A stretch of DNA of 64,000 nt from Minisyncoccota bacterium. Its GTDB lineage: Bacteria; Patescibacteriota; Minisyncoccia; RBG-13-40-8-A. The notes beneath the pieces are model-generated. The model ran no database searches. It was not told where the DNA came from and saw only the letters and a program-made list of their open reading frames with translations. Of the stretch, positions 39,782 to 57,234 are shown in pieces (the stretch's first letter is position 1; every line of letters starts with the position of its first letter). Location of the stretch: positions 431 to 64,430 of the forward strand of contig DATKZC010000025.1 in assembly GCA_035528175.1 (NCBI GenBank). Reading direction: 5' to 3'. Both the position numbers and the translations under genes were made by a program.

Positions 39782-39782
39782 T

Positions 39783-44213: not shown

Positions 44214-44221
44214 GTAATTTT

Positions 44222-45643
44222 ATGAAAATACTTTTACTTTACGATACAAAAGGCTCAAAAGCAAAGAATTTAATGCTAGAATTAGAAAAAAATTCTAATA
44301 AAATAATCTATTGGGTAGGCGCCCCTGGGGGAGAAATAGATAATTTGCCTGAAAGTATTTTTCATTCAAGCTCCGATGCATTGCTCGGATTGCCGGCTAA
44401 AAATATTAATATTTCTGAATTTGCTCCACCAAGCAATAATCTGATAGAAAAATTATACAGAACTGAATCTCTAATTCTAACGATGATGAATGCAAAATAC
44501 GATAATTTGCGCACCAGCGAACGCAAGCATTTATATTATGAAATGTTAAGATATTGGTACGGTATACTCAATAAATATAAACCAGATGTTGTTCTCCATG
44601 GACTTATCCCTCATGCCGTCCATACCTTTTTAATACAGGAATTGGCGCGCTTGCTAAATATCAAAACCGTGATGTTTGAAGACACAGGAGCATCTGATAG
44701 ATTACTGGCATTTAACGATTTCCGCGACGGAAGCAAAGATCTACAAAGAGAAATCAAAAGAAATCATGGCAAAAATTTTTCATTAAAAGATTTGAGCAAT
44801 GATATACAAAAATACTATAAATCACAACTCGACTTTAAGCACGATTCTACGCCAGTATATGTAGGAGTCCTGAAAAATCGATACACTGGATCAGAATTAT
44901 TAAAACGCAGATTGAACCGCTTTAGAAAAAGCATCCAAGAAGGCATTTTTCTGAAAACAATAATACAAACCATAATTAAGAGATTTAGAAAAAATAGCAA
45001 AGATGAATATGCCAGCCTTCAAGCCGAACCGGATTTAAATAAAAAATTTATTTATGCCCCGCTACATTTGCAGCCAGAATGCACCACTTCCCCAAAAGGC
45101 GATTTATTCGTTGACCAAATTCTAATGCTCGAAACTTTATCTGCCGCCCTACCCAAAGATTGGGTAATATATGTTAAAGAGCATCCAATTCAATGGTACC
45201 AGCGCGGAACAGATTTTTCCGGCGCAAGATACCGAGGATATTACAAAAAAATATCTGAGATAAAAAATATTCAATTGATTCCAGTCCAAATCAGCACCTA
45301 TACTTTAATCAATAAATCACAGGCAGTAGCTACTGTTGCCGGAATGGCATCGTGGGAAGCAGTACTGAGGTCTAAACCAGCCATAATATTCGGCTACTCC
45401 TGGTATAGGGATTGTTATGGAGTTTTTAAAGTTGATAACATTTACTCCTGTAGTGTGGCTTTAGAAAAAATTGCCAGCGGTTTTGCCGTAGACCAACAAC
45501 AAGTTATTAATTATTTAAAATGCTTTGATGATGCAACCATCCATGGATATCTCGACGTTGATTATGCAAAAAGCTCTGAACTTACTCCTGAAGAAAATAA
45601 AAATAATGTAATTCAAAAAATGTTATTTGAGATTAAAAATTAA
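44222..45643 (+). CDS. Capsule_synth (KpsC/KpsS)-like glycosyltransferase candidate
   Basis: Start set at MKILLLYDTKG. YAPLHLQPECTTSP and VKEHPIQW resemble the H.QPE and K.HP motifs of KpsC/KpsS-type ulosonic-acid transferases. By-eye only. Confidence 0.35.
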   Translation: MKILLLYDTKGSKAKNLMLELEKNSNKIIYWVGAPGGEIDNLPESIFHSSSDALLGLPAKNINISEFAPPSNNLIEKLYRTESLILTMMNAKYDNLRTSERKHLYYEMLRYWYGILNKYKPDVVLHGLIPHAVHTFLIQELARLLNIKTVMFEDTGASDRLLAFNDFRDGSKDLQREIKRNHGKNFSLKDLSNDIQKYYKSQLDFKHDSTPVYVGVLKNRYTGSELLKRRLNRFRKSIQEGIFLKTIIQTIIKRFRKNSKDEYASLQAEPDLNKKFIYAPLHLQPECTTSPKGDLFVDQILMLETLSAALPKDWVIYVKEHPIQWYQRGTDFSGARYRGYYKKISEIKNIQLIPVQISTYTLINKSQAVATVAGMASWEAVLRSKPAIIFGYSWYRDCYGVFKVDNIYSCSVALEKIASGFAVDQQQVINYLKCFDDATIHGYLDVDYAKSSELTPEENKNNVIQKMLFEIKN

Positions 45644-45663
45644 TTAAGAATTGAGATGAAATT

Positions 45664-46644
45664 ATGATTGAAGATTTATTTAAAGATAAAACAATATTGA
45701 TTACAGGCGGCACCGGATCTTTTGGTTCCAATTTTGTTAAGTATCTACTAAAAAACTCTAAGGCAAAAAAATTAATAATTTACAGCAGAGACGAACTCAA
45801 GCAATCAAAGATGGATGCCGAAATCAATGACAAAAGACTGCGCTTCTTTATTGGAGATGTCCGAGAATCGGAAAGGTTGCGAAGGGCATTTAATGGCGTT
45901 GATATTGTGATACATGCTGCGGCCCTCAAACAAGTTCCGGCCTTGGAATATAATCCATTTGAAGCAATTAAAACCAATATACTCGGCAGCCAGAATATTA
46001 TCAATGCTGCCATTGACCAAGGAATAGAAAAAGTGTTGTTAGTTTCAACAGATAAAGCAGTCCATCCAGTAAATCTTTATGGCGCGACCAAATTATGCGC
46101 CGAGAAATTATTTGTAAACGGCAATGTTTATGCCCCTAAAAAATCAATCTTCAGCGTAGTAAGATATGGCAATGTTTTAGGCAGCCGGGGAAGTATTGTA
46201 GAAACATTACTTAAAGAGAAAAATCCGAAAAAAGTCCAAATTACCGATATGGAAATGACCCGATTCTGGATTACATTAGAACAGACATTTGAATTGGTAT
46301 TGTTTGCGCTTGAGCATATGCGCGGCGGGGAGATTTTTGTGCCCAAGATACCGAGCATGAAATTGGTTGATTTATTTGATGCTATTGCGCCAAACACAGA
46401 GAAAGAAATTATCGGAATCAGACCAGGAGAAAAACTGCACGAAGTCCTACTCACTCAGGAAGAAGCTAAACATGCCATGGAATTAGACAGACATTTCGCC
46501 ATCGTGCCTCATGATAAAAAACTGGAGTTTTACGCGGAAGTAATAAGAAACGGCAAAAAAGTAGCGCATGATTTTAGTTTTAGCAGCCATACCAATAATC
46601 ATTGGTTGACCAAGGAGGAGCTTAAAAAATTAATAAATAACTAA
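45664..46644 (+). CDS. pseB: UDP-GlcNAc 4,6-dehydratase (PseB/CapD/FlaA1-like inverting dehydratase)
   Basis: ILITGGTGSFGS, IYSRDELKQ, LRFFIGDVRE, VIHAAALKQVP...PFEAIKTNILGSQN, and STDKAVHPVNLYGATK with Lys in place of the usual SDR Tyr-partner arrangement, characteristic of PseB/CapD. Confidence 0.85.
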   Translation: MIEDLFKDKTILITGGTGSFGSNFVKYLLKNSKAKKLIIYSRDELKQSKMDAEINDKRLRFFIGDVRESERLRRAFNGVDIVIHAAALKQVPALEYNPFEAIKTNILGSQNIINAAIDQGIEKVLLVSTDKAVHPVNLYGATKLCAEKLFVNGNVYAPKKSIFSVVRYGNVLGSRGSIVETLLKEKNPKKVQITDMEMTRFWITLEQTFELVLFALEHMRGGEIFVPKIPSMKLVDLFDAIAPNTEKEIIGIRPGEKLHEVLLTQEEAKHAMELDRHFAIVPHDKKLEFYAEVIRNGKKVAHDFSFSSHTNNHWLTKEELKKLINN

Positions 46645-46651
46645 TTAAAAT

Positions 46652-47722
46652 ATGGCCAAAAAAGAATTCCCTAAAGTTATAAAAATAGGTTCAAAGTTAG
46701 TCGGCAAAGAACAACCAACGTACTTTATCGCTGACATCGGAGCAAACTTCGATAGCAATTTGGAAAAGGCGAAGAAATTGGCTTTAGCAGTAAAAAAATC
46801 TGGCGCAGATTGCGTTAAATTTCAAACTTTTGCAGCAGACAAAATTGTTTCCGGCCCAAGCTTCGCTAAAATGCATTTAAAAGGCATCCACGGGTCATGG
46901 AAAAAGCCAATTAACCAAATTTTTAAAGAAGCGGAATTCCCTAGGGCATGGCATAAAAAACTTGCTGATTACTGCAAAAAAATAAATATTGATTTCTCTT
47001 CTTCTCCATATGATTTCGAGGCCGTAGATCTTTTGGATAAAATCGGCGTTAATTTTTTCAAAATCGGCTCCGGAGAAATAATCTGGCCAGAAATGTTAAA
47101 ATATATCGCGAGAAAAAACAAACCGATGATTCTGGCAACCGGCGATAGCACATTGGCTGAAGTCGACGAGGCAATAAGAATTATTGAAAGTACAGGAAAC
47201 AATAAATTGATTTTACTTCAGTGCATCACCAATTATCCGTCCAAAATTGAAAATGCAAATATTAATGTCCTTAAAACATATCAAACCGCCTTCAATATTA
47301 TAACCGGATATTCTGATCATAGCCCGGGCGATATAGTCGTTCTGGGTTCTGTTGCATTGGGAGGCAAGGTAATCGAAAAACATTTTACGTTGAACAAAAA
47401 AGATTCTGGCCCAGACCATCCCCATTCTATGGAACCGCAAGAATTCAAACAAATGGTAGATAAAGTAAGATTATTAGAAAAAGCCCTTGGCAGCACCAGA
47501 AAAGAAGTTACGGCCGAAGAATTTGAAACTGTAATTGTCCAGCGTCGATCGCTTCATGTTAACAAAAATATCAAAGCGGGGGAAACAATCAAACGAAACG
47601 ATATAATCGAATTGAGACCAGCGACAGGAATACTTCCTAAACACAAAGACATTGTCGTTGGACGAAAAGCAAAAATCAATATTAAAAAACGCGAAGCAAT
47701 ACAATGGGAGGATATTGCATAA
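46652..47722 (+). CDS. Nonulosonic acid synthase (NeuB/PseI/LegI family) with C-terminal SAF domain
   Basis: YFIADIGANF, ADCVKFQTF TIM-barrel N-terminus of the NeuB family and a C-terminal antifreeze-like domain. Confidence 0.85.
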   Translation: MAKKEFPKVIKIGSKLVGKEQPTYFIADIGANFDSNLEKAKKLALAVKKSGADCVKFQTFAADKIVSGPSFAKMHLKGIHGSWKKPINQIFKEAEFPRAWHKKLADYCKKINIDFSSSPYDFEAVDLLDKIGVNFFKIGSGEIIWPEMLKYIARKNKPMILATGDSTLAEVDEAIRIIESTGNNKLILLQCITNYPSKIENANINVLKTYQTAFNIITGYSDHSPGDIVVLGSVALGGKVIEKHFTLNKKDSGPDHPHSMEPQEFKQMVDKVRLLEKALGSTRKEVTAEEFETVIVQRRSLHVNKNIKAGETIKRNDIIELRPATGILPKHKDIVVGRKAKINIKKREAIQWEDIA

Positions 47723-47725
47723 ATA

Positions 47726-48349
47726 ATGAAATTCAAAGGAAAATTAGTCAATTTAATAAAATTAATGGTCGTTACTTATAACGACCTAATTGACGAATCT
47801 GATGTTGTTGTCTGCCTAGAGGGAGATGGATATAATCGCATAGAAAAAACTATTGAATTGTTTAGGAATGGGTTGGCAAAAAATATTGTTATCTCCGGCG
47901 GATTCAATTCTCCCCCGTTTTGCCTTCACGCAGAAATACTTGCGCAAGAAATTATCAAAAGGGGCATTCCTAAAAATAAAATAATTTTAGAAAAAAATTC
48001 CCAAAATACATACGAACAGGGATTGGAGGTTCTAAAAATCGTTCAGGAAAAGAAATGGAATAAAATAATCCTTGTTGCATCACATTTTCATCAACCAAGG
48101 GCATATCTAGCGTTCTTAAAGGCGATGAAAGATTTAAAATTGAAAGTCCATATATTCAACGCTCCGGCAAAAGACCTTCTTTGGTTTGAAAAAACCGATG
48201 CCGGACCAACAAGAATCCAATTAATGGAAGATGAATTAGAAAAAATCAAAGAATACACAAAAAAAGGTCATCTTATTGAAATTAAAGAAGCATTAAATTA
48301 TCAAAAATGGCAAGAGAAAAAACTGGCTTCGAAAAAATCAAAAAAATAA
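47726..48349 (+). CDS. DUF218 (YdcF/SanA-like) domain protein
   Basis: VVCLEGDGYNRIEKTIELFRNGLAKNIVISGG and LVASHFHQPRA match the DUF218 core. Confidence 0.55.
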   Translation: MKFKGKLVNLIKLMVVTYNDLIDESDVVVCLEGDGYNRIEKTIELFRNGLAKNIVISGGFNSPPFCLHAEILAQEIIKRGIPKNKIILEKNSQNTYEQGLEVLKIVQEKKWNKIILVASHFHQPRAYLAFLKAMKDLKLKVHIFNAPAKDLLWFEKTDAGPTRIQLMEDELEKIKEYTKKGHLIEIKEALNYQKWQEKKLASKKSKK

Positions 48350-48975
48350 TGGGTAAGAATTTTATTGGCCTAAAAGAGCTAAATAAAATTAGCCATTATT
48401 TTAAAATCTCAAACCTTCCCAGGTCTGGTCGTTCAATACCCGACGTTCCCTTTAATTTGAACTATTTAAAAAAAGTTCGCAAAGATTATATATTAATCTT
48501 GGGAATACCAAAAGATAGACAAGACCAAAAATTAACCATAAATAATCTACGTTTAAAATTCGGCTATAACCCATTTAAATCTGAGCCTTGTTTCTATAAC
48601 CAGGACTGGTATTTAAAAGAAAAATTCGCAAAAAATACTACGCTTGAATTCAAATGGTATCTTATAAAAAAGACTGTTGACCAAAATACGCGCGGTAAAA
48701 ATCCTGAAAATATCATAAGAACTTTAAAAGGCAACGAAATATTTCCATCTGCTATTCTCGCTGCCTTCACATTTTTTGCTTATTATCTCTTGAATCACGG
48801 TGAAATCTTATGGAAACATGATTTTATCTGGTGTTCCGATAAAGACAAAAACAATGACAGAATTTATACTGGCCGCTACATTGACCCAAAAAAGATTAAT
48901 AAGAATGGATTTAATATCCATAGACATCTTTCTATCCGTCCCTGCTACGGATTGGTTCCTCAAATAAAATATTAA
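48307..48975 (+). CDS. Protein of unknown function
   Basis: The ORF overlaps the upstream gene by 43 bp, so the true start may be the internal M at codon 15 (MGKNFIGLKEL). One TM-like segment (ILAAFTFFAYYLL). Confidence 0.3.
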   Translation: MAREKTGFEKIKKIMGKNFIGLKELNKISHYFKISNLPRSGRSIPDVPFNLNYLKKVRKDYILILGIPKDRQDQKLTINNLRLKFGYNPFKSEPCFYNQDWYLKEKFAKNTTLEFKWYLIKKTVDQNTRGKNPENIIRTLKGNEIFPSAILAAFTFFAYYLLNHGEILWKHDFIWCSDKDKNNDRIYTGRYIDPKKINKNGFNIHRHLSIRPCYGLVPQIKY

Positions 48976-48999
48976 TATTGATTAAGTCAATTAATAATT

Positions 49000-49689
49000 A
49001 TGAAAGACACAATTCTTTGGAATAAAGAGAGCGATAACTACACAAAAAGAGCTAAAATATCTTATGAGGATTTATATAATAGAAAAATAGATTATGATGA
49101 TGTCGAAAAACTTACAAAAATATTACCAACCAGAATTAAAACCATTTTAGATATTGGTTGTGGATTTGGAGGGTTTACAGGAAAATTAGCTGAAAAATTT
49201 CCTCGCGCAAAAATAATTGGCATTGATCCGGGAAAAAGAACAATTGCTTTGGCTAAAAATAAATTTAAAAAATATAAAAATTTGTCTTTCTATGTTGGGC
49301 ATTCACACAAAATAAATCTTAATGAGGAACAATTTGATTTAGTTATTCTAAGAATGGTTTTTCAATGGATTCCTAGAAAATATTTATTTAAAACAATCGC
49401 AGAAATTGATAAATTATGTAAAAATTTTATATTTATTAAAGAGTTTTATCCTGCCATTCCATCAAGCTCAAAATCTATTCATGATAAAAAAATTAAAATA
49501 TTCAAAGAAGATTACGCAAAAATTTTTATTAGCGTTCCGTGGTATAAATTAATATATAAAAAAATTCAGGATAAAAAATATGGGGATAGTTTTCAAAGAG
49601 GAGATTTTTTAATCCAAAAATTTTCTATTTCTAAATCATATATTTACAAAAAGGCCGTCCAAGAAAAAGATAAAAAAACGCAAAAATAA
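49000..49689 (+). CDS. Class I SAM-dependent methyltransferase
   Basis: ILDIGCGFGGFTGKLA (motif I), IIGIDPG (motif II), LVILRMVFQWIP. Confidence 0.7.
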   Translation: MKDTILWNKESDNYTKRAKISYEDLYNRKIDYDDVEKLTKILPTRIKTILDIGCGFGGFTGKLAEKFPRAKIIGIDPGKRTIALAKNKFKKYKNLSFYVGHSHKINLNEEQFDLVILRMVFQWIPRKYLFKTIAEIDKLCKNFIFIKEFYPAIPSSSKSIHDKKIKIFKEDYAKIFISVPWYKLIYKKIQDKKYGDSFQRGDFLIQKFSISKSYIYKKAVQEKDKKTQK

Positions 49690-49691
49690 AT

Positions 49692-50450
49692 ATGATTACA
49701 GCAATTATCCAAGCCAGAATGGGTTCTACAAGATTGCCCGGCAAAGTACTGAAAAAAATAAAAGGCAAAACCCTGCTGGAAATACTCGTAGAAAGATTAA
49801 GACAGGCAAAAAAAATAGATCAAATTATCATTGCCACCAGCACTGACAAAAAAAATTCGGCCATTGTTAAATTGGCAAAAAAAATAAATTGCTCTTATTT
49901 TATCGGAAATGAAAATGATGTCCTAGATAGAATTTACCAGACCGCTAAAAAATTCAAAGCGCAAACAATTATCAGAGTTACTGCCGATTGCCCATTCCAC
50001 GATCCTGAATTAATAGACCAAATGGTCAATTTTTATTTGAAAAATAAGGATAAATACGATTATGTAAGCAATGTCGACCCGCCAAGCTTTCCTGACGGAC
50101 TAGATCTCTGGATTATCCCCTTCAAAACTCTAGAGCGCACATGGAAAGAAGCAAAACTAACATCAGAAAGAGAGCATGTCTGCCCATACATCTGGAAAAA
50201 TCCTCACTTATTTAAAATCGGGCATTTTGAATCGAAAAAAGATTACTCCCATTTAAGATGGACTGTGGATGATATCGGCGATTTCAATTTTATTAAAAAA
50301 ATCTACGAAAAACTTTACAAAAAAGGAAAAATTTTCCACATGAAAGATATATTAGATTTATTAAAAAAACACCCAGAATTGCATAAAGCCCAAGAAGGAA
50401 AAATTAGAGATGCGGGATATTTAAAATCAATTAAAAACGATAAAAAATAA
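49692..50450 (+). CDS. CMP-nonulosonic acid synthetase / acylneuraminate cytidylyltransferase family (PseF/NeuA/KdsB-like)
   Basis: ITAIIQARMGSTRLPGKVLK (the N-terminal CTP_transf_3 signature) and RVTADCPF. Confidence 0.75.
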   Translation: MITAIIQARMGSTRLPGKVLKKIKGKTLLEILVERLRQAKKIDQIIIATSTDKKNSAIVKLAKKINCSYFIGNENDVLDRIYQTAKKFKAQTIIRVTADCPFHDPELIDQMVNFYLKNKDKYDYVSNVDPPSFPDGLDLWIIPFKTLERTWKEAKLTSEREHVCPYIWKNPHLFKIGHFESKKDYSHLRWTVDDIGDFNFIKKIYEKLYKKGKIFHMKDILDLLKKHPELHKAQEGKIRDAGYLKSIKNDKK

Positions 50451-50454
50451 AATC

Positions 50455-51321
50455 ATGAAAGAAAGACTTCCTATCAGCATAATTATCCGCGCCATAAATG
50501 AAGAATCGAACATTTCTGATTGCATTAAAGCGTGCAAAGACAACAATCCTGAAGAAATTATTGTTGTTGATGGCGGCTCAAAGGATAAAACGCGAGAAAT
50601 AGCGCAGCAATGCGGAGCAAAAGTAGTAATTTCCGAACGCGGACTCTCTAATCAAAGAGATGCCGGCGTAAAAGCTGCTTCCTGTCCGTATATAGCCATT
50701 GTAGACGCTGATGACCGCTTAAAAGAAGACTGCCTGGAAAAGTTGCTTAAAGAAATAAGAGAAAACGATTACGACGCAATCCAAGCGCAACTGCGCAATT
50801 TCTACAAATGGTACGGCAATGAAGAAAAACAAGCAACATATCTTGAACGGGCAATGGATGTTAATCTTAGAATAATCCGCTCTCAAATCGGCCCTACAAC
50901 AATGGTTGGCAGGCCAGCGCTCTATAAAACAAGTTCACTAAAAGCTGTTCCCATGGATCCCCTGTTCCAGGACGCGTCCGAAGATTCAGACCTTTCGTAC
51001 AGATTCCATCAAAATGGATTCAAACAAGGAATAGGCACTGGAGTTTCTTACAGAAAACATCTTTCTAGTTTCAGAAAAGCCGTCAAAAAATACATTTTAA
51101 GCGGAAAGGGAGAAGCTTTATTTACTTTCCGCCATCCGGAAAGATTGTTCGCAACGCTCAAGCACGAGCTTTATGTGTATCCGATTAAAAGATCATTTAA
51201 AGCAATTCGCAATGGTTATATGTTTTATGCTCCGTTTTTCGTCTTGGTTGGCTGGTGCCGTTTCTTCGGTTTTATTAAAACAAAAATAAAGTTTCTTCTT
51301 AAGGGAAAACCTAGATTATGA
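50455..51321 (+). CDS. Family 2 glycosyltransferase
   Basis: ISIIIRAINEE, VVDGGSKDKT and AIVDADD (DxD) motifs. Confidence 0.75.
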   Translation: MKERLPISIIIRAINEESNISDCIKACKDNNPEEIIVVDGGSKDKTREIAQQCGAKVVISERGLSNQRDAGVKAASCPYIAIVDADDRLKEDCLEKLLKEIRENDYDAIQAQLRNFYKWYGNEEKQATYLERAMDVNLRIIRSQIGPTTMVGRPALYKTSSLKAVPMDPLFQDASEDSDLSYRFHQNGFKQGIGTGVSYRKHLSSFRKAVKKYILSGKGEALFTFRHPERLFATLKHELYVYPIKRSFKAIRNGYMFYAPFFVLVGWCRFFGFIKTKIKFLLKGKPRL

Positions 51322-52739
51322 AAATAGCTTTTATACAAAAAAGAACTTATGAAAAAATTGGCGTTCACCAAATTTCTGGCTGCCTGAAAAACGCCAACAA
51401 AGATTTTATAATTGATATTTTTATCGAAGAACTTGAACCTAATTTCTACGATAAAATTGCCACATTTAAGCCAGATTTTGTGCTCTACAGCCTTTTTATC
51501 GGCGAAGAATCATTCGTCTTGGAAGCATTTTCGAAAATAAAAGAATTCTTGCCCCAAGTTAAAACAATTATTGGCGGGCCATTCACGCTTGTTTTTCCAG
51601 AAATTGCCAAAAGAGACGAAGTTGATTTTGTAATCCGAGGTGACGGAGAATATTCTCTTCCCCTCTTTTTTAAATTATATGAGGACAAAAAATCTCTTCA
51701 TGAGGTTCCAGGAATATATTTCATACAAGAAGACGGAACTCTATTTAAAAATGACAATATCCGATTAACTTCTGATTTAAAAAACATTCCTGACCCGGAT
51801 CGAGATCTATATTACAAATACGAATCGCTACGTAATCAAGACACTAAAGGTTTTATCGCTTCGCGCGGATGCCCTTATAACTGTACTTATTGTTATAATG
51901 CCGAGCTTAAAAAGTTTTATACAGAGTCTTATTGGCGCCTCAGAGACCAAGAAGCGGTACTCAGGGAAATCGAATACGTCAAAAACAAATACGGCCTGAA
52001 ATGGGTTCATTTCCACGATGGTACGTTCAATTCGAGTATCGAATGGTTGAAGTCATTCCTTGTAGAATATAAAAAACGCGGCTTGCCACCTTTTCTCTGT
52101 AATTGCAGGGTAGAAAATATAAATGAGGAATCAGTATCTCTAATGAAACAGGCCGGTTGCGAGAGGATTACTTTTGGAATACAATCTGGCAACCAATATA
52201 TCAGGGAAGATATTTCTGGAAGGCATATGCCGGACAAACAAATAGAAGATGCTTTCGCGCTATGTAAAAAATATAACATCCGAGTTGGTGCAGATATTAT
52301 TTTTGGTTGGCCAGGAGAAACCATGGAACAAGCGATGGATACGATAAATATGTGCAGAAAAATCAAACCTGATACTTGCCATTCTAATGTACTTATTCCC
52401 TATCCTGGACTCTGGATTACTAAAAGAGCGATAAAAGAAGGATTTTTGGAACACGAACCGACTTTCAAAGAAATCAGAGAACTAGACAGCAATAAATCAT
52501 TAATAAAGCAAAAAAATATCAGATTGTTAATCAATATGGATAAACTTTTTAATTATTTGATACAATTTCCGTTTATAGAAAAGTTTTTCAAATTTTTACT
52601 GCACCTGCCTCCCAATAAGTTTTTCAAGTTTTTAAAAAATTTACATCTTTTAAAAAGAAGTTTAAAATATGATTCTGACGACTTTTTATCGTCACTCAAA
52701 ATTATTAGAAACTACATACAGCATTATAATGACGCTTAA
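51318..52739 (+). CDS. Cobalamin-binding radical SAM enzyme (class B rSAM)
   Basis: About 150-aa N-terminal B12-binding-like Rossmann domain (IIGGPF), then ASRGCPYNCTYCYN (CxxxCxxC) and ERITFGIQSG TIM-barrel motif. Confidence 0.75.
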   Translation: MKIAFIQKRTYEKIGVHQISGCLKNANKDFIIDIFIEELEPNFYDKIATFKPDFVLYSLFIGEESFVLEAFSKIKEFLPQVKTIIGGPFTLVFPEIAKRDEVDFVIRGDGEYSLPLFFKLYEDKKSLHEVPGIYFIQEDGTLFKNDNIRLTSDLKNIPDPDRDLYYKYESLRNQDTKGFIASRGCPYNCTYCYNAELKKFYTESYWRLRDQEAVLREIEYVKNKYGLKWVHFHDGTFNSSIEWLKSFLVEYKKRGLPPFLCNCRVENINEESVSLMKQAGCERITFGIQSGNQYIREDISGRHMPDKQIEDAFALCKKYNIRVGADIIFGWPGETMEQAMDTINMCRKIKPDTCHSNVLIPYPGLWITKRAIKEGFLEHEPTFKEIRELDSNKSLIKQKNIRLLINMDKLFNYLIQFPFIEKFFKFLLHLPPNKFFKFLKNLHLLKRSLKYDSDDFLSSLKIIRNYIQHYNDA

Positions 52740-52742
52740 TTT

Positions 52743-54368
52743 ATGAAAACAATAAAAAATATTTTATTTTTAAATCCGCCCGATCCTTCTTTATTGAAAC
52801 AAAATTCTAAAAAGATTAATTGTCCATATTTTGAACCTCCATTGGGATTGCTTTATGTTTATTCATTTATAAAAAGAAACAAAAAAGATTTGTCAGTCCG
52901 TTTTTGCGATCTGAATATAGAAATGGGCTTTAAGGGCGCAAAAACTCTTGAGGAGGCAATTAAACGCTCAATGGATAATTTTGCTCCCGACCTTGTTTGT
53001 GTGTCGGCCCTATATTATTCGGCAATTTCCATTTTTCATTCCACGGTAAAGGAAGTTAAAAAACTGGCGCCTGGTGTTTTGGTTGTATTGGGGGGGCACT
53101 ATGCGACTCATTTGACAAATATGGCAATGAAAGACGAATTAATTGACTTTTGCGTCCTTTCCGAGGGCGAAATCGGGCTGTCGGACTTAATTGACGCTCT
53201 TAACTCTGAAAAAAATCTTGAAGAAATAGAAGGTTTAGCCTATAGAAAAAACAATGAAATAATCAGGAAACCGCGCAATAATTTTTGGAGCGGATACAGC
53301 GATTTTGACACGCTGGAATGGAATGACTTGGAAATGGAATACTATTTCAAAGAAGGCAGAAACGTATTCGACAGATTCGAAAATAGAAATCAGAGAAAGT
53401 TTGCGGCAATGACTGCCACGCGCGGATGCCCGAATGCCTGCATTTTTTGCTCTTCAAAAAATTTCTGGCACAGAAATTGGAGAAAGAGAAAAATACCCAA
53501 AATCATAGATGAGGTAAAATTCCTAATTAATAATTATGGCGCAAACACGATTATTTTCAATGATGAAAACATGAGCGTAGACAAAGATTGGTTCTTCGAA
53601 TTAATGGATGAATTAGAAAAATTAAAAATTACCTGGATAGCAGGCAGCGGTCTCTCAGTAAGAACTATCAACGACGAAAAAGTGATTAAAAAAATGTATT
53701 CAAGCGGTATAGGATATTTTAATCTGGCCATTGAATCAAGTAGCGACGAATCACTAAAAAAATTACAGAAACCGAGTTCAATCGAAGAAATAAAAAACGT
53801 GATTAAAATGATTAGGGAAAACGGCAATGGTTATGTTAACGGGTTTTTTATAACCGGATTTCCGTTTGAAGCAAAAAAAGACGTAATTTATACTTATGAT
53901 TTTGCCCGCTCGCTCGGGCTGGATTGGTATTCTTTTTATTGCCTGCAACCATTCCCAGGAACCGAAATCCATAATTATTGCCTAGAAAATAAATTAATAG
54001 AAGCGTTTGATATAAACTATGGAGAAAATTATTTTGCTCCAGATATGAAACATTTGGATTATACTTCTGAAGAATTGAACAAATTGAACTATATAGCCAA
54101 CTTAAAATACAATTTTGTCGAAAATCGCAACTTAAAAATGAATACGGAAAAATCTCTCCAGCAGGCCGAACGCGACTTTAAATACATCCTTGATATGGTA
54201 CCCAATCATGTTTTCGCTTTTTGGGGATTATCGGAAATAGCAAGATTAAAAAATCAAGAAGACAAAAGGAAAGAATACATTGCTTTAGCGAAAAAAGCGC
54301 TTATTGAAGACAAAACTACAGACTGGCAATACTATTTAAAAGAATTTAATTTAAATATTAACCAATAA
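52743..54368 (+). CDS. Cobalamin-binding radical SAM enzyme (class B rSAM), tandem paralog
   Basis: N-terminal B12-binding-like domain (VVLGGHYATH), ATRGCPNACIFCSS (CxxxCxxC) and a C-terminal about 150-aa extension. Confidence 0.75.
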   Translation: MKTIKNILFLNPPDPSLLKQNSKKINCPYFEPPLGLLYVYSFIKRNKKDLSVRFCDLNIEMGFKGAKTLEEAIKRSMDNFAPDLVCVSALYYSAISIFHSTVKEVKKLAPGVLVVLGGHYATHLTNMAMKDELIDFCVLSEGEIGLSDLIDALNSEKNLEEIEGLAYRKNNEIIRKPRNNFWSGYSDFDTLEWNDLEMEYYFKEGRNVFDRFENRNQRKFAAMTATRGCPNACIFCSSKNFWHRNWRKRKIPKIIDEVKFLINNYGANTIIFNDENMSVDKDWFFELMDELEKLKITWIAGSGLSVRTINDEKVIKKMYSSGIGYFNLAIESSSDESLKKLQKPSSIEEIKNVIKMIRENGNGYVNGFFITGFPFEAKKDVIYTYDFARSLGLDWYSFYCLQPFPGTEIHNYCLENKLIEAFDINYGENYFAPDMKHLDYTSEELNKLNYIANLKYNFVENRNLKMNTEKSLQQAERDFKYILDMVPNHVFAFWGLSEIARLKNQEDKRKEYIALAKKALIEDKTTDWQYYLKEFNLNINQ

Positions 54369-54382
54369 ACAAATCCAAACTT

Positions 54383-55696
54383 ATGAAACCTAATCGAGGC
54401 ATCAAATTATGGAATAAAGCGAAAAAATTAATCCCTGGCGGCTCTCAGCTGCTTTCAAAGCGCGCAGAAATGTTTCTGCCAGACCAATGGCCTGCCTATT
54501 TTAAAAAATCCAAAGGCGTAAATGTCTGGGATTTAGACGGAAATAAATATCTGGACACATGGGCAAGTATTGGCGCCTGCATATTAGGCTATGCTGATCC
54601 GGATGTGAATAAAGCTGTTAAAAGAGCAATAGATGATGGTTCGGTATCTACGCTTAATTCACCAGAAGAAGTAGAACTGACAGAATTATTGTGCAAATTG
54701 CATCCCTGGGCTCAAATGGCAAGATATGCCAGAGGCGGAGGCGAAGCAATGGCAGTAGCTATTAGAATTGCCCGCGCTGCCAGCAACAAGGACAAAATAG
54801 CGTTCTGCGGTTATCATGGATGGCAGGATTGGTACCTTGCCGCAAACCTCGCTAAAGATAAAAACCTTGACGGACATCTCTTGCCTGGGCTTGAACCAAG
54901 GGGCGTACCCAGAGGGCTGAAAGGAACCGCCATCCCCTTCCATTACAACAAGATCGAGGAGCTTGAAAAAATAATTGCTCAAAATAGAGACATAGGAGTA
55001 ATTGTAATGGAACCATTAAGAGACCATGAACCACAAAACAATTTTTTACAGAAAGTCAGAAAGATTGCCGACAAAATCAATGCAGTATTGATTTTTGATG
55101 AAATAACTATTGGCTGGAGATTATGCATTGGCGGAGCGCATCTTAAATACGGAGTTAATCCCGACATTGCAGTATTCGCCAAAGGTATAAGCAATGGTTT
55201 TCCCATGGGGGCTATTATTGGCAAAAAGAAAATTATGGAAGCAGCTCAAACTAGCTTTATCAGCAGTTCTTCATGGACAGAAAGAATCGGTTTTACTGCT
55301 GCGCTGGCAACCATTAAAAAATTCATGGCTAAAAATGTTCCTGTCCATCTTAATAAAATTGGAAAAATACTTATCGTCGGCTTAAAAGAAGTTGCAAAAA
55401 AAAATGGAATAAAATTAACAATAGCCGGCCCTGCGCCATTATTCCATTTTTCTTTCGATTATGGCACGGACAGCCAGGCAATTCGCACTCTTTTTACGCA
55501 AGAAATGCTAAAAAGAGGAATTTTAGCTTCTGGTGGCGTTTATATCAGTTATAGTTTTAAAACTGAGCATGTTAAAAAATATTTAAAAGCAGCAGACAGC
55601 GTTTTTTTCTTGCTTAAAAAAGCCATTGATAAGAAAACAATTTACAGCTTATTGGAAGGACCAATTGCGCATAAACGATTTGAAAGATTAACCTAA
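54383..55696 (+). CDS. Class III PLP-dependent aminotransferase (GSA-aminomutase-like)
   Basis: GGSQLLSKR, VWDLDGNKYLD, GYHGWQDWY, VIFDEITIGWRL and FAKGISNGFPMGAI (PLP-Lys) are all class III hallmarks. Confidence 0.8.
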   Translation: MKPNRGIKLWNKAKKLIPGGSQLLSKRAEMFLPDQWPAYFKKSKGVNVWDLDGNKYLDTWASIGACILGYADPDVNKAVKRAIDDGSVSTLNSPEEVELTELLCKLHPWAQMARYARGGGEAMAVAIRIARAASNKDKIAFCGYHGWQDWYLAANLAKDKNLDGHLLPGLEPRGVPRGLKGTAIPFHYNKIEELEKIIAQNRDIGVIVMEPLRDHEPQNNFLQKVRKIADKINAVLIFDEITIGWRLCIGGAHLKYGVNPDIAVFAKGISNGFPMGAIIGKKKIMEAAQTSFISSSSWTERIGFTAALATIKKFMAKNVPVHLNKIGKILIVGLKEVAKKNGIKLTIAGPAPLFHFSFDYGTDSQAIRTLFTQEMLKRGILASGGVYISYSFKTEHVKKYLKAADSVFFLLKKAIDKKTIYSLLEGPIAHKRFERLT

Positions 55697-55701
55697 TTTT
55701 T

Positions 55702-57234
55702 ATGGATGAATTCATAAGAAAAAACAAAGCATTTTGGTCCCAATTCAAGACCAAGCACGGAGAGAAAAAATTGCTTATTGAGGAACCCGGCCGTGTGATG
55801 ATTACGCATGCGAATGCGGTTTTCTCAATAATGATAAACCAGGCAAAAGATTATATGCCTGTGTGGCTTTGCGGCAAAGATTGCGAAGAAAAAAAGCTAA
55901 TTTTCTCTTATTGCCCTGAAGCAGAAATTATAACCACCAAAGAATGGACGTTTATAAAAATCTATTCTGCTTTAGTCGCTTTTGTTAAATATTTAAAGAT
56001 ATATTTAACCAAAGATGTATTAGGATTCCATTACGATGGCATAAAATACGGCGACATCCTCTACGATGCTTATCTATTTGAAAACAACGTCGCAACCATA
56101 AAAAAAATAGATTTTAAAATTATAAAAATTATCGCCAAGTGCATTTTCCGCCACATTAAGATTAAAAAAACCTTAAATAGCGGTAATTATTTCGGCGTTC
56201 TAGTTTCCCATTTAACCGGCATCAGCAGCGGCGTGATGGCGCGCTGCGCCCTGCGTTATGGCTATTATGTATATGTACGCACCGGCCACCATCGTTCAAG
56301 GCTTCAATTACTAAAAGGCACAGAAAGCTCTTATGATTATCCGCTTACCGCCCATATGACTGATGTTGATAAAATTATTACCCAAGCAGGACCGAACTTA
56401 GAAAAAATATTCCAAAAAACACTGGAAGAAGAAATTATTGGCAAAGGTAATGCAAACAGCATCAATGCCTTTTCAAAAAACAGTTCTTTTTATGATAATC
56501 GTATAGTTTTTAATTCCGATTATCATCTCGACCCGAATAAAAAAAATGTGTTTATCATGTTGCATATTTTCAACGACCACCCGCATTCGCACTTTCGATG
56601 GATGCTTTTCAACGATTATTATGACTGGATGGTGCAGACGCTCAACTTTGCCAAAACAAATAATAAGGTCAATTGGATTTTTAAACAGCATCCTTCAATT
56701 AAAAATTACGTTACTAAAGGTACGGATTTAAACGAATTATTCAAAGACCTACCCCCAAATATCGCTTATATCGATGAAAACAAACAAATAAACACTCAAA
56801 GTTTAATCCATTGCGCAGATTTAATTGTCACCTGCCTTGGTTCTGCTGGTTTTGAATTGCCGGCGATGAAAGCCATTCCCTCGCTGGTTGCTGGCGACAA
56901 CCCTTATACAGGGTTAGGTTTTGCCCTTGAACCGAAAACAAAGAAAGAATATTTTCAAATACTGGAGAATGCCGATAAAATTGACAAAATCAAACCCGAA
57001 GCGCAAAAACGCGCGCAAGCAGCCTTTATTTATATCTACAAAGTTTCCAATATAAATATGTCTGTCTGCCCCATTCTGTCCCAGGCAGAAGAAAAAGACA
57101 AAAACATTAAACAGCGTTATTGGAATATGATTTGCAACCAATATGCTACGAAAAAAGATATTATTTTAAAAGAATTAAACCAATATATTCAAGAAATAGC
57201 TAAGCCAAAATTTAAAAGATTGATTAATGAATAA
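55702..57234 (+). CDS. Unknown polysaccharide-biosynthesis protein, possibly a second Capsule_synth/TagF-like transferase
   Basis: FKQHPSIKNY and DLIVTCLGSAGFE resemble the K.HP and nucleotide-sugar-binding C-terminal half of KpsS/TagF-like enzymes. Weak call. Confidence 0.3.
   Translation: MDEFIRKNKAFWSQFKTKHGEKKLLIEEPGRVMITHANAVFSIMINQAKDYMPVWLCGKDCEEKKLIFSYCPEAEIITTKEWTFIKIYSALVAFVKYLKIYLTKDVLGFHYDGIKYGDILYDAYLFENNVATIKKIDFKIIKIIAKCIFRHIKIKKTLNSGNYFGVLVSHLTGISSGVMARCALRYGYYVYVRTGHHRSRLQLLKGTESSYDYPLTAHMTDVDKIITQAGPNLEKIFQKTLEEEIIGKGNANSINAFSKNSSFYDNRIVFNSDYHLDPNKKNVFIMLHIFNDHPHSHFRWMLFNDYYDWMVQTLNFAKTNNKVNWIFKQHPSIKNYVTKGTDLNELFKDLPPNIAYIDENKQINTQSLIHCADLIVTCLGSAGFELPAMKAIPSLVAGDNPYTGLGFALEPKTKKEYFQILENADKIDKIKPEAQKRAQAAFIYIYKVSNINMSVCPILSQAEEKDKNIKQRYWNMICNQYATKKDIILKELNQYIQEIAKPKFKRLINE

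Follow-up and report, generated by a model that had tools for sequence, protein, structure and literature searches.

The closest characterized relatives of the synthase and cytidylyltransferase type described here are SpsE and SpsF of Bacillus subtilis, which are genetically required for the synthesis of legionaminic acid and its transfer onto the spore surface (PMC7439481). The Legionella pneumophila Sg6 cluster includes both a DegT gene and a GSA-aminomutase-like gene (PMC3694923). We analyzed a 64-kb stretch of DNA, referred to as the window, from a Candidatus Paceibacterota (CPR) MAG, which represents an uncultured, ultra-small, groundwater-type bacterium. An initial annotation had delimited a unit at positions 45664 to 55696. 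The ten plus-strand ORFs within these limits are all present, but the limits are too short on both sides: the operon comprises 17 tightly packed plus-strand genes (40902 to 58402), with intergenic gaps of ≤24 nt or overlaps throughout. The gene identities proposed previously are right, although one GT2 gene (50455 to 51321) was missing from the list. The operon is bracketed by a promoter-like and a terminator-like site. The putative sigma-70-like promoter (TTGACA-18-TATAAT, 40863..40892, plus strand), a consensus match only, is the sole 12/12 match in 40000 to 59800 and lies 10 nt 5′ of the first gene; the hairpin followed by a T-run (58463..58480, plus strand) is a pattern match only, from a pattern scan. 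The first gene encodes an HTH_17 DNA-binding protein (40902..41150; Pfam HTH_17, 40.9 bits), whose orthologs (52 to 72% identity) also come first in the related loci L007, L009, L173, and L179. It is followed by a GDP-fucose-synthase-like SDR epimerase/reductase (41161..42120; Pfam Epimerase, 139 bits; NF047922 Fcl, 131 bits, well under the cutoff of 500), possibly a 4-keto reductase or epimerase.

Three genes define the biosynthetic core. PseB, an inverting UDP-GlcNAc 4,6-dehydratase (45664..46644; Polysacc_synt_2, 319.6 bits), matches TIGR03589 at the equivalog level (461.5 bits; curated cutoff, 407.75) and has intact STDKA and YGATK catalytic motifs. The NeuB-family nonulosonate synthase, which includes a SAF domain (46652..47722), retains the catalytic motifs SDH and EKH. 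It scores 278 bits against NeuB (PF03102) versus only ∼19 bits against DAHP/KDO-type models, and its best PDB matches are B. subtilis SpsE (188.8 bits) and PseI 8h2c (183.7 bits), with N. meningitidis NeuB at 135 bits; it is thus NeuB-like and not KdsA-like, as initially proposed. Because the scores fall under both the NeuB/LegI and the PseI cutoffs (TIGR03569, 321.7 bits, cutoff 399.65; TIGR03586, 303.4 bits, cutoff 340.25), the stereochemistry of the sugar is not fixed by these models. The third enzyme is an SpsF-type cytidylyltransferase and presumed CMP-nonulosonate synthetase (CTP3, 49692..50450; CTP_transf_3, 121.8 bits), with 6oew as its best PDB match (2e-41); members of its 90% cluster carry the JGI name SpsF. 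The profile searches therefore bear out the earlier assignment of a PseB/NeuB-family/CTP_transf_3 core that would make a nine-carbon ulosonic acid and activate it with CMP.

The window was compared with about ten related loci, several of them incomplete, whose relatedness is given here, except for L179, as identity to rSAM-2, the second of two B12-binding radical SAM proteins in the operon. The gene order of L171 (75%) and L177 (93%) follows that of the window. L011 (54%) encodes NeuB, GNAT, AKR, a CTP3-aminotransferase fusion, the methyltransferase, GT2, rSAM-1, and rSAM-2, while L174, L175, and L176 (37 to 47%) have NeuB, CTP3, GT2, the methyltransferase, GFO, and a second B12-binding radical SAM protein, with the aminotransferase in L176. 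True PseB and true PseC accompany NeuB and CTP3 in L007, L009 (a Staskawiczbacteria MAG), and L173 (51 to 53%) and in L172 (55%), the last of which also has a true PseG. L179 shares with the window the series Capsule_synth, PseB, NeuB, DUF218, 222-aa protein, CTP3, and aminotransferase at 49 to 76% identity (PseB, 65%; NeuB, 69%; DUF218, 54%; CTP3, 49%; aminotransferase, 76%), with the Capsule_synth ortholog (53%) directly 5′ of PseB. The same combination in independent loci, together with the tight gene spacing, indicates linkage that exceeds chance. The previously noted association of the core with B12-binding radical SAM proteins, a class III aminotransferase, DUF218, and a methyltransferase is thus a conserved one.

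Each of the eleven distinct locus types examined has both CTP3 and NeuB. This argues against a distinctly improbable arrangement in which the cytidylyltransferase and the class III aminotransferase, with a dehydrogenase or reductase, form a separate unit whose product, an amino-polyol or another amino substituent activated as its CDP or CMP derivative, would be attached to the glycan without involvement of the NeuB product, in the manner of CDP-ribitol, CDP-glucitol, or serinol-phosphate decorations. Such an arrangement would fit a cytidylyltransferase that falls short of every curated model for CMP-ulosonate synthetases (PseF, 27 bits; KdsB subfamily models, ≤76 bits), also matches NTP_transf_3, and has an aminotransferase and an oxidoreductase, not NeuB, as fusion partners. 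L179 has two CTP_transf_3 genes, the second adjoined by an AKR gene, and the production of CDP-alditols by cytidylyltransferase and reductase pairs is established chemistry. However, there is no second cytidylyltransferase in the window, and nonulosonate transfer needs CMP activation; a domain search recognized neither a sugar-phosphate-forming enzyme nor a Glyphos_transf-type phosphotransferase in the operon; and SpsF, which is of the same type, is needed for legionaminic acid display on the B. subtilis spore (PMC7439481).

A domain scan of ORFs across the 64-kb window, including all long ones, found no DegT, GNAT/PseH, or Glyco_tran_28/PseG domains, in agreement with the lack of PseC, PseH, and PseG reported initially. 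The core includes two other conserved proteins, a DUF218 (YdcF/ElyC-like) protein (47726..48349; PF02698, 74.4 bits) and a CPR-specific 222-aa protein (48307..48975) to which the domain search assigned no family and which has a C-type-lectin/FGE-like fold. A rewired yet self-sufficient Pse-like route, in which the class III aminotransferase acts as PseC, DUF218 as PseG, and the 222-aa protein (or nothing) as PseH, would account for the absence of all three canonical domains and would, by number, match six conserved genes (PseB, aminotransferase, 222-aa protein, DUF218, NeuB, and CTP3) to six steps. Among the loci seen, PseG is confined to one that lacks DUF218 (L172), and DUF218 is found where PseG is absent, either beside NeuB (L171, L177, and L179, as well as the window) or fused to the cytidylyltransferase (L007, L009, and L173). 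GNAT (L011 and L176), WbqC (L007, L009, L173, and L172), and the 222-aa protein (the window, L171, L177, and L179) are likewise mutually exclusive. We nevertheless consider this route unlikely. The complementary pattern comes from about ten loci only, several of them incomplete, and nothing in the fold of the 222-aa protein points to an acyltransferase. In L179, a true PseC (461.8 bits; cutoff, 423.5) is encoded immediately 3′ of the class III aminotransferase, and the Staskawiczbacteria-type loci and L172 pair rSAM-2 with true PseB and PseC, which speaks against the initial annotation's view that the accessory genes stand in place of PseC, PseH, and PseG. That annotation had also held that canonical pse genes just outside the window would refute it, and this is half the case: in L177, the nearest relative (482-kb contig), a DegT gene starts ∼3 kb past the equivalent end of the window's 64,960-nt contig. 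To our knowledge, all nucleotide-sugar 4-aminotransferases known so far are of the DegT type. The co-occurrence of DegT and GSA-aminomutase-like genes in the L. pneumophila Sg6 cluster (PMC3694923) also argues against the rewired route.

The class III (GSA-aminomutase-like) aminotransferase (54383..55696; Aminotran_3, 145 bits) has PRK06209 as its best model (252.9 bits, under the cutoff of 486) and intact catalytic motifs (DEITIGWR and FAKG, with the PLP lysine at residue 265). Its relatives point to a late role. Among the 150 best representatives, 42 are 640 to 740 aa long, and the architectures among those sampled included CTP_transf_3-Aminotran_3 (7/10), GFO-Aminotran_3 (1/10), and GFO-CTP_transf_3-Aminotran_3 (1/10). 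Fusions that join this aminotransferase family to the pathway's final enzyme and to GFO/IDH/MocA dehydrogenases argue for late oxidation and amination, on a freshly oxidized carbon, rather than for the PseC step. Directly 5′ of the operon, a radical SAM/SPASM protein and a GFO/IDH/MocA oxidoreductase (38672..40784, plus strand; Pfam) are encoded, and the latter is a possible dehydrogenase partner of the aminotransferase. A similar pair sits between rSAM-1 and rSAM-2 in L177, and GFO genes adjoin CTP3 in L174 and L176; the window GFO is only 22 to 26% identical to the GFO domains that elsewhere adjoin, or are fused to, the aminotransferase or CTP3. Since sister loci carry true PseC and, in one case, true PseG, and L177 has DegT, the class III aminotransferase and the radical SAM proteins look like late-stage tailoring enzymes of a pseudaminic-type pathway, not substitutes for PseC, PseH, and PseG.

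Both radical SAM proteins combine B12-binding and Radical_SAM domains and retain the CxxxCxxC cluster motif: rSAM-1 (51318..52739; 39.7 and 90.5 bits) as CPYNCTYC at residue 185 and rSAM-2 (52743..54368; 48.8 and 65 bits) as CPNACIFC at residue 229. Orthologs of rSAM-1 (44 to 81% identity) are present in L171, L177, L011, and L174. With ∼59 full-length orthologs, rSAM-2 is the accessory enzyme with the widest conservation, and its orthologs (37 to 93% identity) adjoin NeuB/CTP_transf_3 in nine other distinct locus types. No report tying radical SAM enzymes to nonulosonic acids was found in the literature searched. C-methylation by the two proteins is plausible by analogy. The N-terminal domain of rSAM-2 aligns with the cobalamin domains of OxsB, TokK, CysS, and TsrM; Fom3 methylates a CMP-linked substrate, and gentamicin biosynthesis pairs GenK and GenD1 with GenB aminotransferases of class III. 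A more tentative alternative is that they do not methylate and instead catalyze dehydration or deoxygenation (AprD4-like), skeleton rearrangement (HpnJ- or OxsB-like), or anaerobic oxidation, perhaps forming the carbonyl for the class III aminotransferase, which lies directly 3′ of rSAM-2 in the window, L171, and L177. Among solved structures, 9ccb and AprD4, a non-methylating sugar diol dehydratase, are the nearest matches to the radical SAM core, and the best NCBIfam models are HpnJ (rSAM-1, 126.6 bits) and BchE (rSAM-2, 155.4 bits), neither of which is a methyltransferase. A BtrN-type radical SAM dehydrogenase paired with an aminotransferase is a known means of anaerobic amine installation, and CPR bacteria are mostly anaerobes. 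However, the AprD4 match is confined to the generic radical SAM core; the N-terminal domains match true cobalamin domains, those of TokK, CysS, and TsrM, all methylases; models of characterized B12-binding radical SAM families all score far below their cutoffs, so the HpnJ and BchE matches indicate nothing specific about function; and many rSAM-2 loci (L007, L009, L173, and L172) lack a class III aminotransferase within 10 kb. The operon also encodes a class I SAM methyltransferase (49000..49689; Methyltransf_25, 63 bits) with orthologs in L011 (37%) and L177 (92%) and a weak match to TIGR03587, “pseudaminic acid biosynthesis-associated methylase” (35.8 bits; cutoff, 112).

The remaining genes are consistent with glycan assembly and export. 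Wzm, an ABC-2 permease (42105..42926; ABC2_membrane, 67.9 bits), precedes a Wzt ATPase with a C-terminal glycan-cap-binding domain (42942..44213; ABC_tran and Wzt_C, 40.6 bits) that also matches TagH/Wzt-like models. In Klebsiella O12, the carbohydrate-binding domain of Wzt reads a beta-Kdo cap. The candidate CMP-ulosonate transferase is a Capsule_synth (KpsS/KpsC-like) protein (44186..45643; PF05159, 30.7 bits, residues 312 to 408) with an HP motif at residue 333. A 510-aa protein (55702..57234), for which profile and PDB searches gave neither a family nor a PDB match, is a weak candidate for a second ulosonate transferase, given its weak pairwise similarity to the Capsule_synth protein (25% identity over 170 aa; E = 1e-4) and the shared LH..P and K[EQ]HP motifs. 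Two further glycosyltransferases are encoded, a GT2 enzyme (50455..51321; Glycos_transf_2, 97 bits) with one C-terminal hydrophobic segment (window beginning at residue 256), whose orthologs adjoin the radical SAM pair in L171, L177, L176, L175, and L011, and a GT4 enzyme, the operon's last gene (57227..58402; Glycos_transf_1, 126.5 bits). Acceptor-side machinery is encoded at 33639..37327 by genes for a Wzy_C/TPR ligase-like protein (minus strand; Wzy_C, 78.5 bits) and a polyprenyl-phosphate glycosylphosphotransferase (plus strand; Bac_transf, 221 bits; TIGR03025, 374 bits against a cutoff of 295.55).

Taken together, the gene content leads us to favor, by a modest degree of confidence, a reading in which the operon makes, CMP-activates, tailors, and installs a pseudaminic-type 9-deoxy nonulosonic acid in a surface glycan. 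PseB would convert UDP-GlcNAc to the 4-keto-6-deoxy sugar, which would be aminated at C4 by a PseC encoded off this contig, as in the sister loci, or, less likely, by the class III enzyme. The DUF218 and lectin/FGE-fold proteins are candidates for the PseG- and PseH-type steps, after which the released hexose would be condensed with PEP by the NeuB homolog and activated to the CMP-sugar by CTP3. At or around the CMP-sugar stage, a dehydrogenase and the class III aminotransferase may add an extra amino group, and the class I methyltransferase and the two B12-binding radical SAM proteins may add methyl or alkyl groups, with C-methylation as the leading guess. Transfer of the product to a glycan assembled on a polyprenyl carrier and exported via Wzm/Wzt would fall to the Capsule_synth-like protein, perhaps together with the 510-aa protein; there the sugar would probably cap the chain end and be recognized by the C-terminal domain of Wzt. 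By locus comparison, this gene set is found again in many uncultured lineages, and rSAM-2 accompanies NeuB and CTP_transf_3 in distant ones.

The window makes up nearly all of a 64,960-nt contig from a Candidatus Paceibacterota (CPR/Patescibacteria) MAG. Its positions 1 to 33,000 hold housekeeping genes, among them those for SecA, SecDF, tRNA synthetases, and a clamp-loader subunit. Amid these genes, at 11076-13529 and 20161-21702 (minus strand), are those for two TrwB/VirD4/HerA-like coupling-protein ATPases, one of which has a treble-clef zinc finger, and a protein with sigma-70 region 4 and a HARE-HTH domain is encoded at 23026-24066. The region from 33,639 to the window end is devoted to glycan biosynthesis; the NCBI entries for proteins of this MAG are HUT96446-HUT96481. 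The initial annotation had placed a nonulosonic acid gene cluster at 45664-55696. All ten ORFs of this interval were found on the plus strand and the domain assignments of the genes it named hold, but it left out two ORFs, a GT2 gene (50455-51321) and a family-less ORF encoding a 222-aa protein (48307-48975). The interval was also too narrow, as the unit comprises 17 genes, from an HTH_17 gene starting at 40902 to the end of a GT4 gene at 58402, with all junctions ≤24 nt or overlapping. The additional members are an Fcl-like SDR, Wzm, Wzt carrying the cap-binding Wzt_C domain, a Capsule_synth protein of KpsS/KpsC-like type directly 5′ of PseB (44186-45643), a 510-aa protein (55702-57234), and the GT4. 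The sole perfect TTGACA-18-TATAAT match in the region lies at 40863-40892; at 58463-58480, a hairpin is followed by a T-run (both are pattern matches only). The small HTH_17 (excisionase/MerR-like) gene sits behind a perfect sigma-70 consensus promoter by pattern match (40863-41150). Its homologs, at 52 to 72% identity, are the first gene of the nonulosonate clusters in several CPR loci, and on account of this conserved place its product is likely a cluster regulator. The G+C content falls to 29.9% at 48001-50000, compared with 34 to 38% elsewhere in the window, and the dip spans the 222-aa ORF and the methyltransferase gene.

The pathway core was assessed against curated models. The PseB assignment at 45664-46644 was upheld at the equivalog level (TIGR03589, 461.5 bits; cutoff, 407.75), the FnlA model reaching 256 bits against a cutoff of 730. 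The protein encoded at 46652-47722 combines a NeuB domain (278 bits) with a SAF domain, and the catalytic motifs of both enzymes are present (STDKA and YGATK in PseB; SDH and EKH in the synthase). The synthase scored below the cutoffs of both the PseI model (TIGR03586, 303.4 bits; cutoff, 340.25) and the NeuB/LegI model (TIGR03569, 321.7 bits; cutoff, 399.65); among solved structures, it matched SpsE (1vli, 188.8 bits) about as well as PseI (183.7 bits) and better than meningococcal NeuB (135 bits). Kinship with KDO-8-P synthase would undermine a nonulosonate assignment, but DAHP-type models gave only ∼19 to 20 bits, so the enzyme is NeuB-like rather than KdsA-like, as originally proposed. The CTP_transf_3 cytidylyltransferase at 49692-50450 is not KdsB and scored 27.4 bits on the PseF model (TIGR03584; cutoff, 205.7); its best solved relative is 6oew (2e-41), and members of its 90% cluster are named SpsF, which identifies it by similarity as the SpsF/6oew type of CTP_transf_3. 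The assignments of DUF218 (47726-48349) and a class I methyltransferase (49000-49689) were likewise borne out. The retaining dehydratase model LegB (TIGR04180; cutoff, 475) gave 65 bits on the PseB protein and 78 bits on an SDR at 41161-42120, and no Epimerase_2 (NeuC/LegG hydrolyzing 2-epimerase) domain was detected among the scanned ORFs of the window.

The operon resembles the PseB-PseC-PseH-PseG-PseI-PseF pathway of Helicobacter pylori and Campylobacter jejuni in its PseB equivalog, followed by a NeuB-family synthase and a CTP_transf_3 protein. It differs in the synthase, which lies below the PseI cutoff, in the SpsF-type cytidylyltransferase, and in carrying DUF218, the 222-aa protein, a class III aminotransferase, two B12-binding radical SAM proteins, and a GT2. 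PseC, PseH, and PseG, which the initial annotation had not recognized, are absent from the window: no DegT_DnrJ_EryC1, GNAT, or Glyco_tran_28/PseG-type domain was detected in any scanned ORF of the window. The legionaminic acid pathway of Bacillus subtilis consists of SpsM, C, D, G, E, and F, of which SpsE is needed for legionaminic acid synthesis and SpsF for transfer to the spore surface (PMC7439481). The likeness to this pathway lies in the SpsE-related synthase, the SpsF-type cytidylyltransferase, and the start from a UDP-linked sugar. Unlike the sps operon, the window encodes a dehydratase of the inverting PseB type rather than a retaining one, contains radical SAM and class III aminotransferase genes, and lacks SpsC-, SpsD-, and SpsG-type genes.

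The unusual enzymes are linked to this core beyond a single contig. About 59 full-length orthologs of the second B12-radical SAM protein (rSAM-2, 52743-54368) were found, all from metagenomes or MAGs, one of them named Candidatus Staskawiczbacteria. We examined the neighborhoods of eight of these orthologs and that of L011, a locus from a genome scan. Among the matches listed in a profile scan of genome and metagenome contigs with the rSAM-2 alignment, nearly all were B12-radical SAM paralogs at 24 to 30% identity, and the useful loci were only L011 and, marginally, L072 and L014. The gene order of L171 (rSAM-2, 75% identity) and of the nearest relative, L177 (93%), is collinear with that of the window. 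In L177, rSAM-2 is 93 to 94% identical to that of the window and is called 51 residues shorter at the N terminus; its rSAM-1 and rSAM-2 genes are separated by an insertion that carries a radical SAM/SPASM gene and a GFO/IDH/MocA gene (5064-7005), an instance of strain-level cassette variation. L011 (54%), from a MAG binned as Fibrobacterota, encodes an RmlD-like SDR, NeuB, a GNAT protein, an aldo-keto reductase, and a 722-aa CTP_transf_3-Aminotran_3 fusion, followed by a methyltransferase, a UDP-sugar dehydrogenase, a GT2, rSAM-1, and rSAM-2. In the more distant L174, L175, and L176 (37 to 47%), NeuB, the cytidylyltransferase, and the methyltransferase are kept and a second B12-radical SAM gene adjoins rSAM-2 in 3/3; the GT2 is kept in L175 and L176, a GFO oxidoreductase is present in L174 and L176, and the aminotransferase is present in L176. 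L007, L009/L010 (both Staskawiczbacteria MAGs), and L173 (51 to 53%) encode HTH_17, PseB, DegT, a methyltransferase, NeuB, a second DegT, a CTP_transf_3-DUF218 fusion, rSAM-2, and WbqC, and L172 (55%) encodes PseB, DegT, rSAM-2, the cytidylyltransferase, PseG, WbqC, another B12-radical SAM protein, and NeuB. This recurrence indicates that the linkage of the radical SAM proteins and the aminotransferase with the nonulosonate core is meaningful. The operon is a nonulosonate operon to which the unusual enzymes truly belong.

Further features of these loci were noted. The CTP_transf_3-DUF218 fusions (441 to 444 aa; L007, 8666-10000; L009, 8683-10014; L173, 8679-10004) lie directly 5′ of rSAM-2 and overlap it. 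Between PseC and the methyltransferase, the same loci encode a DUF4430 protein and a DUF6580 membrane protein (L007, 4673-5721; L009, 4722-5776; L173, 4607-5650); DUF4430 is a transcobalamin-like domain, and the pair may therefore capture cobalamin. A second module (L007, 14146-19382; L009, 15669-20927; L173, 15871-21098) contains a 503-aa NeuB-Cupin_2 fusion, an SDR, a radical SAM/SPASM protein, and a 606- to 608-aa B12-radical SAM protein of yet another family.

The initial annotation had set the class III aminotransferase, DUF218, the methyltransferase, and the radical SAM enzymes in place of PseC, PseH, and PseG. Since the contig stops 960 nt past the window, the missing genes could lie farther on. 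In L177, a 482-kb contig whose proteins are 82 to 96% identical to those of the window in the biosynthetic block from the cytidylyltransferase to GT4a, a DegT gene comes after the divergent GT4/methyltransferase block and starts ∼3 kb beyond the equivalent of this contig's end. A search with the 68-aa DegT fragment of L177 for sequence farther on returned no candidates. The sister loci were confirmed as pseudaminic-type by their scores on curated models: PseB at 445 to 491 bits in L179, L007, L172, and L174; PseC at 462 to 541 bits (cutoff, 423.5) in L179, L007, and L172; and PseG at 178.4 bits (cutoff, 153.55) in L172, the one locus with a true PseG. A weak PseH-like GNAT protein is present in L011 (61.5 bits; cutoff, 93.1), and the sister-locus NeuB homologs, like that of the window, fall below both synthase cutoffs. 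L179 is a 60-kb contig with a member of the 222-aa family and identities to the window of 49 to 76%. Its genes run HTH_17, ABC exporter, Capsule_synth, PseB, methyltransferase, NeuB, DUF218, 222-aa protein, and cytidylyltransferase, followed by a methyltransferase, the class III aminotransferase, PseC, a different B12-radical SAM protein, an unknown protein, an aldo-keto reductase, and a second cytidylyltransferase. From this order and these identities, Capsule_synth, PseB, NeuB, DUF218, the 222-aa protein, the cytidylyltransferase, and the class III aminotransferase make up the stable CPR core. The original picture of a nonulosonate operon with linked unusual enzymes stands. Its replacement scheme is not supported, because L179 pairs the class III enzyme with a true PseC and fusions of that enzyme point to a later step; the unusual enzymes look like additions to a pseudaminic-type pathway.

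The gene at 54383-55696 encodes a class III aminotransferase whose best model is GSA-aminomutase-like, in agreement with the initial annotation; the DEITIGWR motif and the FAKG lysine are present, and GenB-like structures match at 1e-36. Identity with HemL (glutamate-1-semialdehyde 2,1-aminomutase) was rejected, because the protein scored below the cutoffs of TIGR00713 (201 bits; cutoff, 527.3) and PRK06209 (252.9 bits; cutoff, 486) and because its context and fusions with CTP_transf_3 and GFO domains are unlike heme synthesis. A full-library search yielded 1550 relatives at E ≤1e-30, and 42 of the best 150 representatives are 640 to 740 aa long. Ten of the long relatives were tested: seven are CTP_transf_3-Aminotran_3 fusions, one is a GFO/IDH/MocA-Aminotran_3 fusion, one is a GFO/IDH/MocA-CTP_transf_3-Aminotran_3 fusion, and amidohydrolase and kinase domains occupy the N terminus in one each. 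The proteins with CTP_transf_3 or GFO domains are L011 3579-5747, P0260, P0263, P0270, P0277, P0289, P0325, P0283, and P0356; P0261 and P0393 carry the Amidohydro_2 and APH-kinase domains. The cytidylyltransferase domains in these fusions share 37 to 42% identity with that of the window, and the fused GFO domains share 30 to 45% with the GFO genes found in L174 and L176. With a dehydrogenase and an aminotransferase coupled to the final enzyme of the pathway, the class III enzyme most likely takes part in the oxidation and amination of a hydroxyl near the CMP-activation step. The fusions do not point to the PseC reaction, in which the carbonyl comes from PseB. Late amination fits the side-by-side presence of the class III enzyme and PseC in L179. 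It also fits Legionella pneumophila Sg6, where a GSA-aminomutase-like gene accompanies DegT beside the cytidylyltransferase (PMC3694923), and Leptospira, where an extra aminotransferase with no assigned step lies beside the CMP-NulO synthetase (PMC3438082). In the Legionella Sg6/Sg12 LPS clusters, the gene adjoins an acylneuraminate cytidylyltransferase within a PseG/DegT/CapD cluster (PMC3694923), and Leptospira interrogans shows a similar aminotransferase-cytidylyltransferase pairing (PMC3438082). No B12-radical SAM proteins are reported in either, and both are likened to the window by description, so that homology, including that of Leptospira, is a lead.

DUF218 and the 222-aa protein might supply what PseG and PseH do elsewhere. 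Among the ∼10 loci seen, several of them incomplete, PseG occurs only where DUF218 is absent, and no locus has more than one of the GNAT protein, WbqC, and the 222-aa protein. Such a pattern would be expected if DUF218 and the 222-aa protein filled PseG/PseH-type steps, a suggestion we make with low confidence: the sample is small, and the 222-aa protein does not have a fold suggestive of an acyltransferase. That protein matches no Pfam or NCBIfam model, and DUF218 has no PDB sequence match. The 222-aa family has 1169 matches, the best 120 at 54 to 86% identity; every match with a source name is from Patescibacteria, to which the family so far appears to be restricted. A confident AF2 model has a C-type-lectin/FGE-sulfatase-like fold. 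The invariant residues include E93-P-C95, Y97-N-Q-D-W-Y102, D178, D180, N182, D184, K199, H205, and R206, with Cys95 unchanged throughout and D178, D180, N182, and D184 forming an Asp-rich loop. A divergent WbqC was ruled out, as no similarity was found.

Both radical SAM proteins possess the domains assigned to them, with rSAM-1 (51318-52739) and rSAM-2 scoring 39.7 and 48.8 bits, respectively, on the B12-binding model (PF02310; gathering threshold, 32.1) and 90.5 and 65 bits on the radical SAM core (PF04055). CxxxCxxC is at residue 185 in rSAM-1 and residue 229 in rSAM-2, and the rSAM-2 profile aligns over its N-terminal domain with the cobalamin domains of OxsB, TokK, CysS, and TsrM. The nearest structures to the core are 9ccb, AprD4, and then RimO for rSAM-2 and 9ccb and then AprD4 for rSAM-1. 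The predicted architecture is thus that of class B enzymes, a B12-type N-terminal domain with a CxxxCxxC core, shared with GenK/GenD1 (gentamicin, alongside GenB aminotransferases), Fom3 (acting on cytidylyl-hydroxyethylphosphonate), and AprD4. The neighborhood is also similar to the GenK/GenD1-GenB and Fom3 systems in holding a class III aminotransferase and a cytidylyltransferase. Unlike GenK, Fom3, and AprD4, the two proteins have no family-level membership, and their presumed nonulosonate substrate is without precedent. The best curated models, HpnJ for rSAM-1 and BchE for rSAM-2, score far below cutoff, and none of the characterized methylase families includes either protein (PhpK, 95/87 bits, cutoff 600; KedN5, 54/62 bits, cutoff 700; HpnR, 68/74 bits, cutoff 650). 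C-methylation, as by GenK, GenD1, and Fom3, is the commonest class B radical SAM chemistry, and Fom3 makes a CMP-linked substrate feasible; the C-methylation initially guessed for rSAM-1 and rSAM-2 remains an analogy, and either could instead be a dehydratase, mutase, or oxidase. A Fom3/PhpK-like phosphonate pathway was rejected because the Sden_1168 P-methyltransferase model gave rSAM-2 153 bits, far under its cutoff (575), and a PEP mutase was not detected among the scanned ORFs of the window. No cobalamin riboswitch was detected in the window, L007, L173, or L179, the sole Rfam match being a tRNA. In the library covered, literature searches yielded nothing joining radical SAM or B12 to nonulosonic, pseudaminic, or legionaminic acid, nothing on Patescibacteria and nonulosonic acids or on class III aminotransferases with cytidylyltransferases, and only two unrelated genome papers for DUF218 with cytidylyltransferase.

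Around a core that is stable, the B12-radical SAM genes of the examined loci vary as tailoring genes do; their products fall into at least five mutually distant families. Two further neighborhoods hint that such tailoring of ulosonic acids may extend beyond the studied ortholog set: in L014, from an unclassified MAG (9986-12713), a B12-radical SAM protein (28 to 31% identity) adjoins a true NeuB (415 bits; cutoff, 399.65), and in L030, from an Omnitrophota MAG (185-11329), one at 28 to 31% adjoins a 629-aa DUF218-containing protein.

Genes for transfer and export accompany the operon. Wzm (ABC2_membrane, 67.9 bits) and Wzt (ABC_tran, 78.7 bits; Wzt_C, 40.6 bits) lie within it, and a radical SAM/SPASM protein, a GFO/IDH/MocA oxidoreductase, an initiating phosphoglycosyl transferase (Bac_transf, 221 bits), and a Wzy_C/TPR ligase-like protein are encoded upstream; together, these matches point to a Wzm/Wzt glycan assembly set with a Wzt_C domain and an initiating transferase. 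A DUF4910/DUF2172/peptidase-M28-like protein (37331-38668) is encoded between the initiating transferase and the radical SAM/SPASM gene. The Wzy_C (O-antigen-ligase-like) protein has 745 aa and C-terminal TPR repeats (33639-35876, minus strand); the organism is not expected to have LPS, and the protein is a candidate protein O-oligosaccharyltransferase or ligase to another acceptor. The Capsule_synth protein also lies directly upstream of PseB in L179 (53% identity). The 510-aa protein has no PDB or family match; it shares 25% identity over 170 aa and the LH..P and K[EQ]HP motifs with the Capsule_synth protein in a weak pairwise match, with an hhalign probability of 1.6% and a single-sequence AF2 pLDDT of 33. 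A divergent minus-strand block at 58382-64000, with four GT4 genes, two class I methyltransferases, and one more radical SAM/SPASM protein, is probably responsible for the synthesis and methylation of the glycan backbone; GT4 orthologs at 59 to 62% identity occur in a Patescibacteria MAG (L038). Given the Capsule_synth protein, Wzt with Wzt_C, the initiating transferase, and the ligase-like protein, the simplest model would be an ABC-transporter-dependent glycan with the modified nonulosonate as its terminal residue, analogous to the Klebsiella O12 antigen, which is capped by beta-Kdo. The window shares Wzm, Wzt with Wzt_C, a KpsS/KpsC-like protein, an initiating transferase, and a Wzy_C ligase-like protein with such systems, namely, Klebsiella O12/Raoultella WbbB, where the Wzt CBM reads the beta-Kdo cap, and the Geobacillus S-layer (WsaP, Wzm/Wzt, and a Wzy_C-type ligase). 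It differs in its CPR host, in which the nonulosonate would serve as the cap by analogy.

Nonulosonic acids are major determinants of microbial surface recognition, and their known diversity consists of N-acyl, O-acyl, and epimer variants; to our knowledge, forms that radical chemistry has C-alkylated or further aminated have not been described. The loci share a recurring uncharacterized module of NeuB, an SpsF-type cytidylyltransferase, a class III aminotransferase, B12-radical SAM proteins, a methyltransferase, and a GT2. A bold and on balance doubtful reading is that CPR bacteria and several other uncultured lineages make an undescribed class of nonulosonic acid. In this scheme, a dehydrogenase and a class III aminotransferase, paired and tied physically to the CMP-synthetase, would further aminate a pseudaminic-type sugar, the cobalamin radical SAM enzymes would then C-alkylate the CMP-sugar, and DUF218 and the CPR-wide lectin/FGE-fold protein would be new, non-orthologous hydrolase or acyl-handling enzymes. 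If true, this would provide a new substrate class for class B radical SAM enzymes and a function for DUF218 and for an unannotated protein family of more than 1000 members, both flagged here as pathway members, the latter very conserved and CPR specific. The fusion evidence is clear, with dozens of CTP_transf_3-aminotransferase fusion clusters, and turns an odd cluster into well-defined enzymology targets: the cytidylyltransferase-aminotransferase-GFO coupling, rSAM-1 and rSAM-2, DUF218, and the 222-aa family. The operon also draws attention to the surface glycan of CPR bacteria, about whose envelopes and chemistry of attachment to hosts very little is known, and for organisms whose genomes are minimal, a dependence on cobalamin would be a notable nutritional tie.
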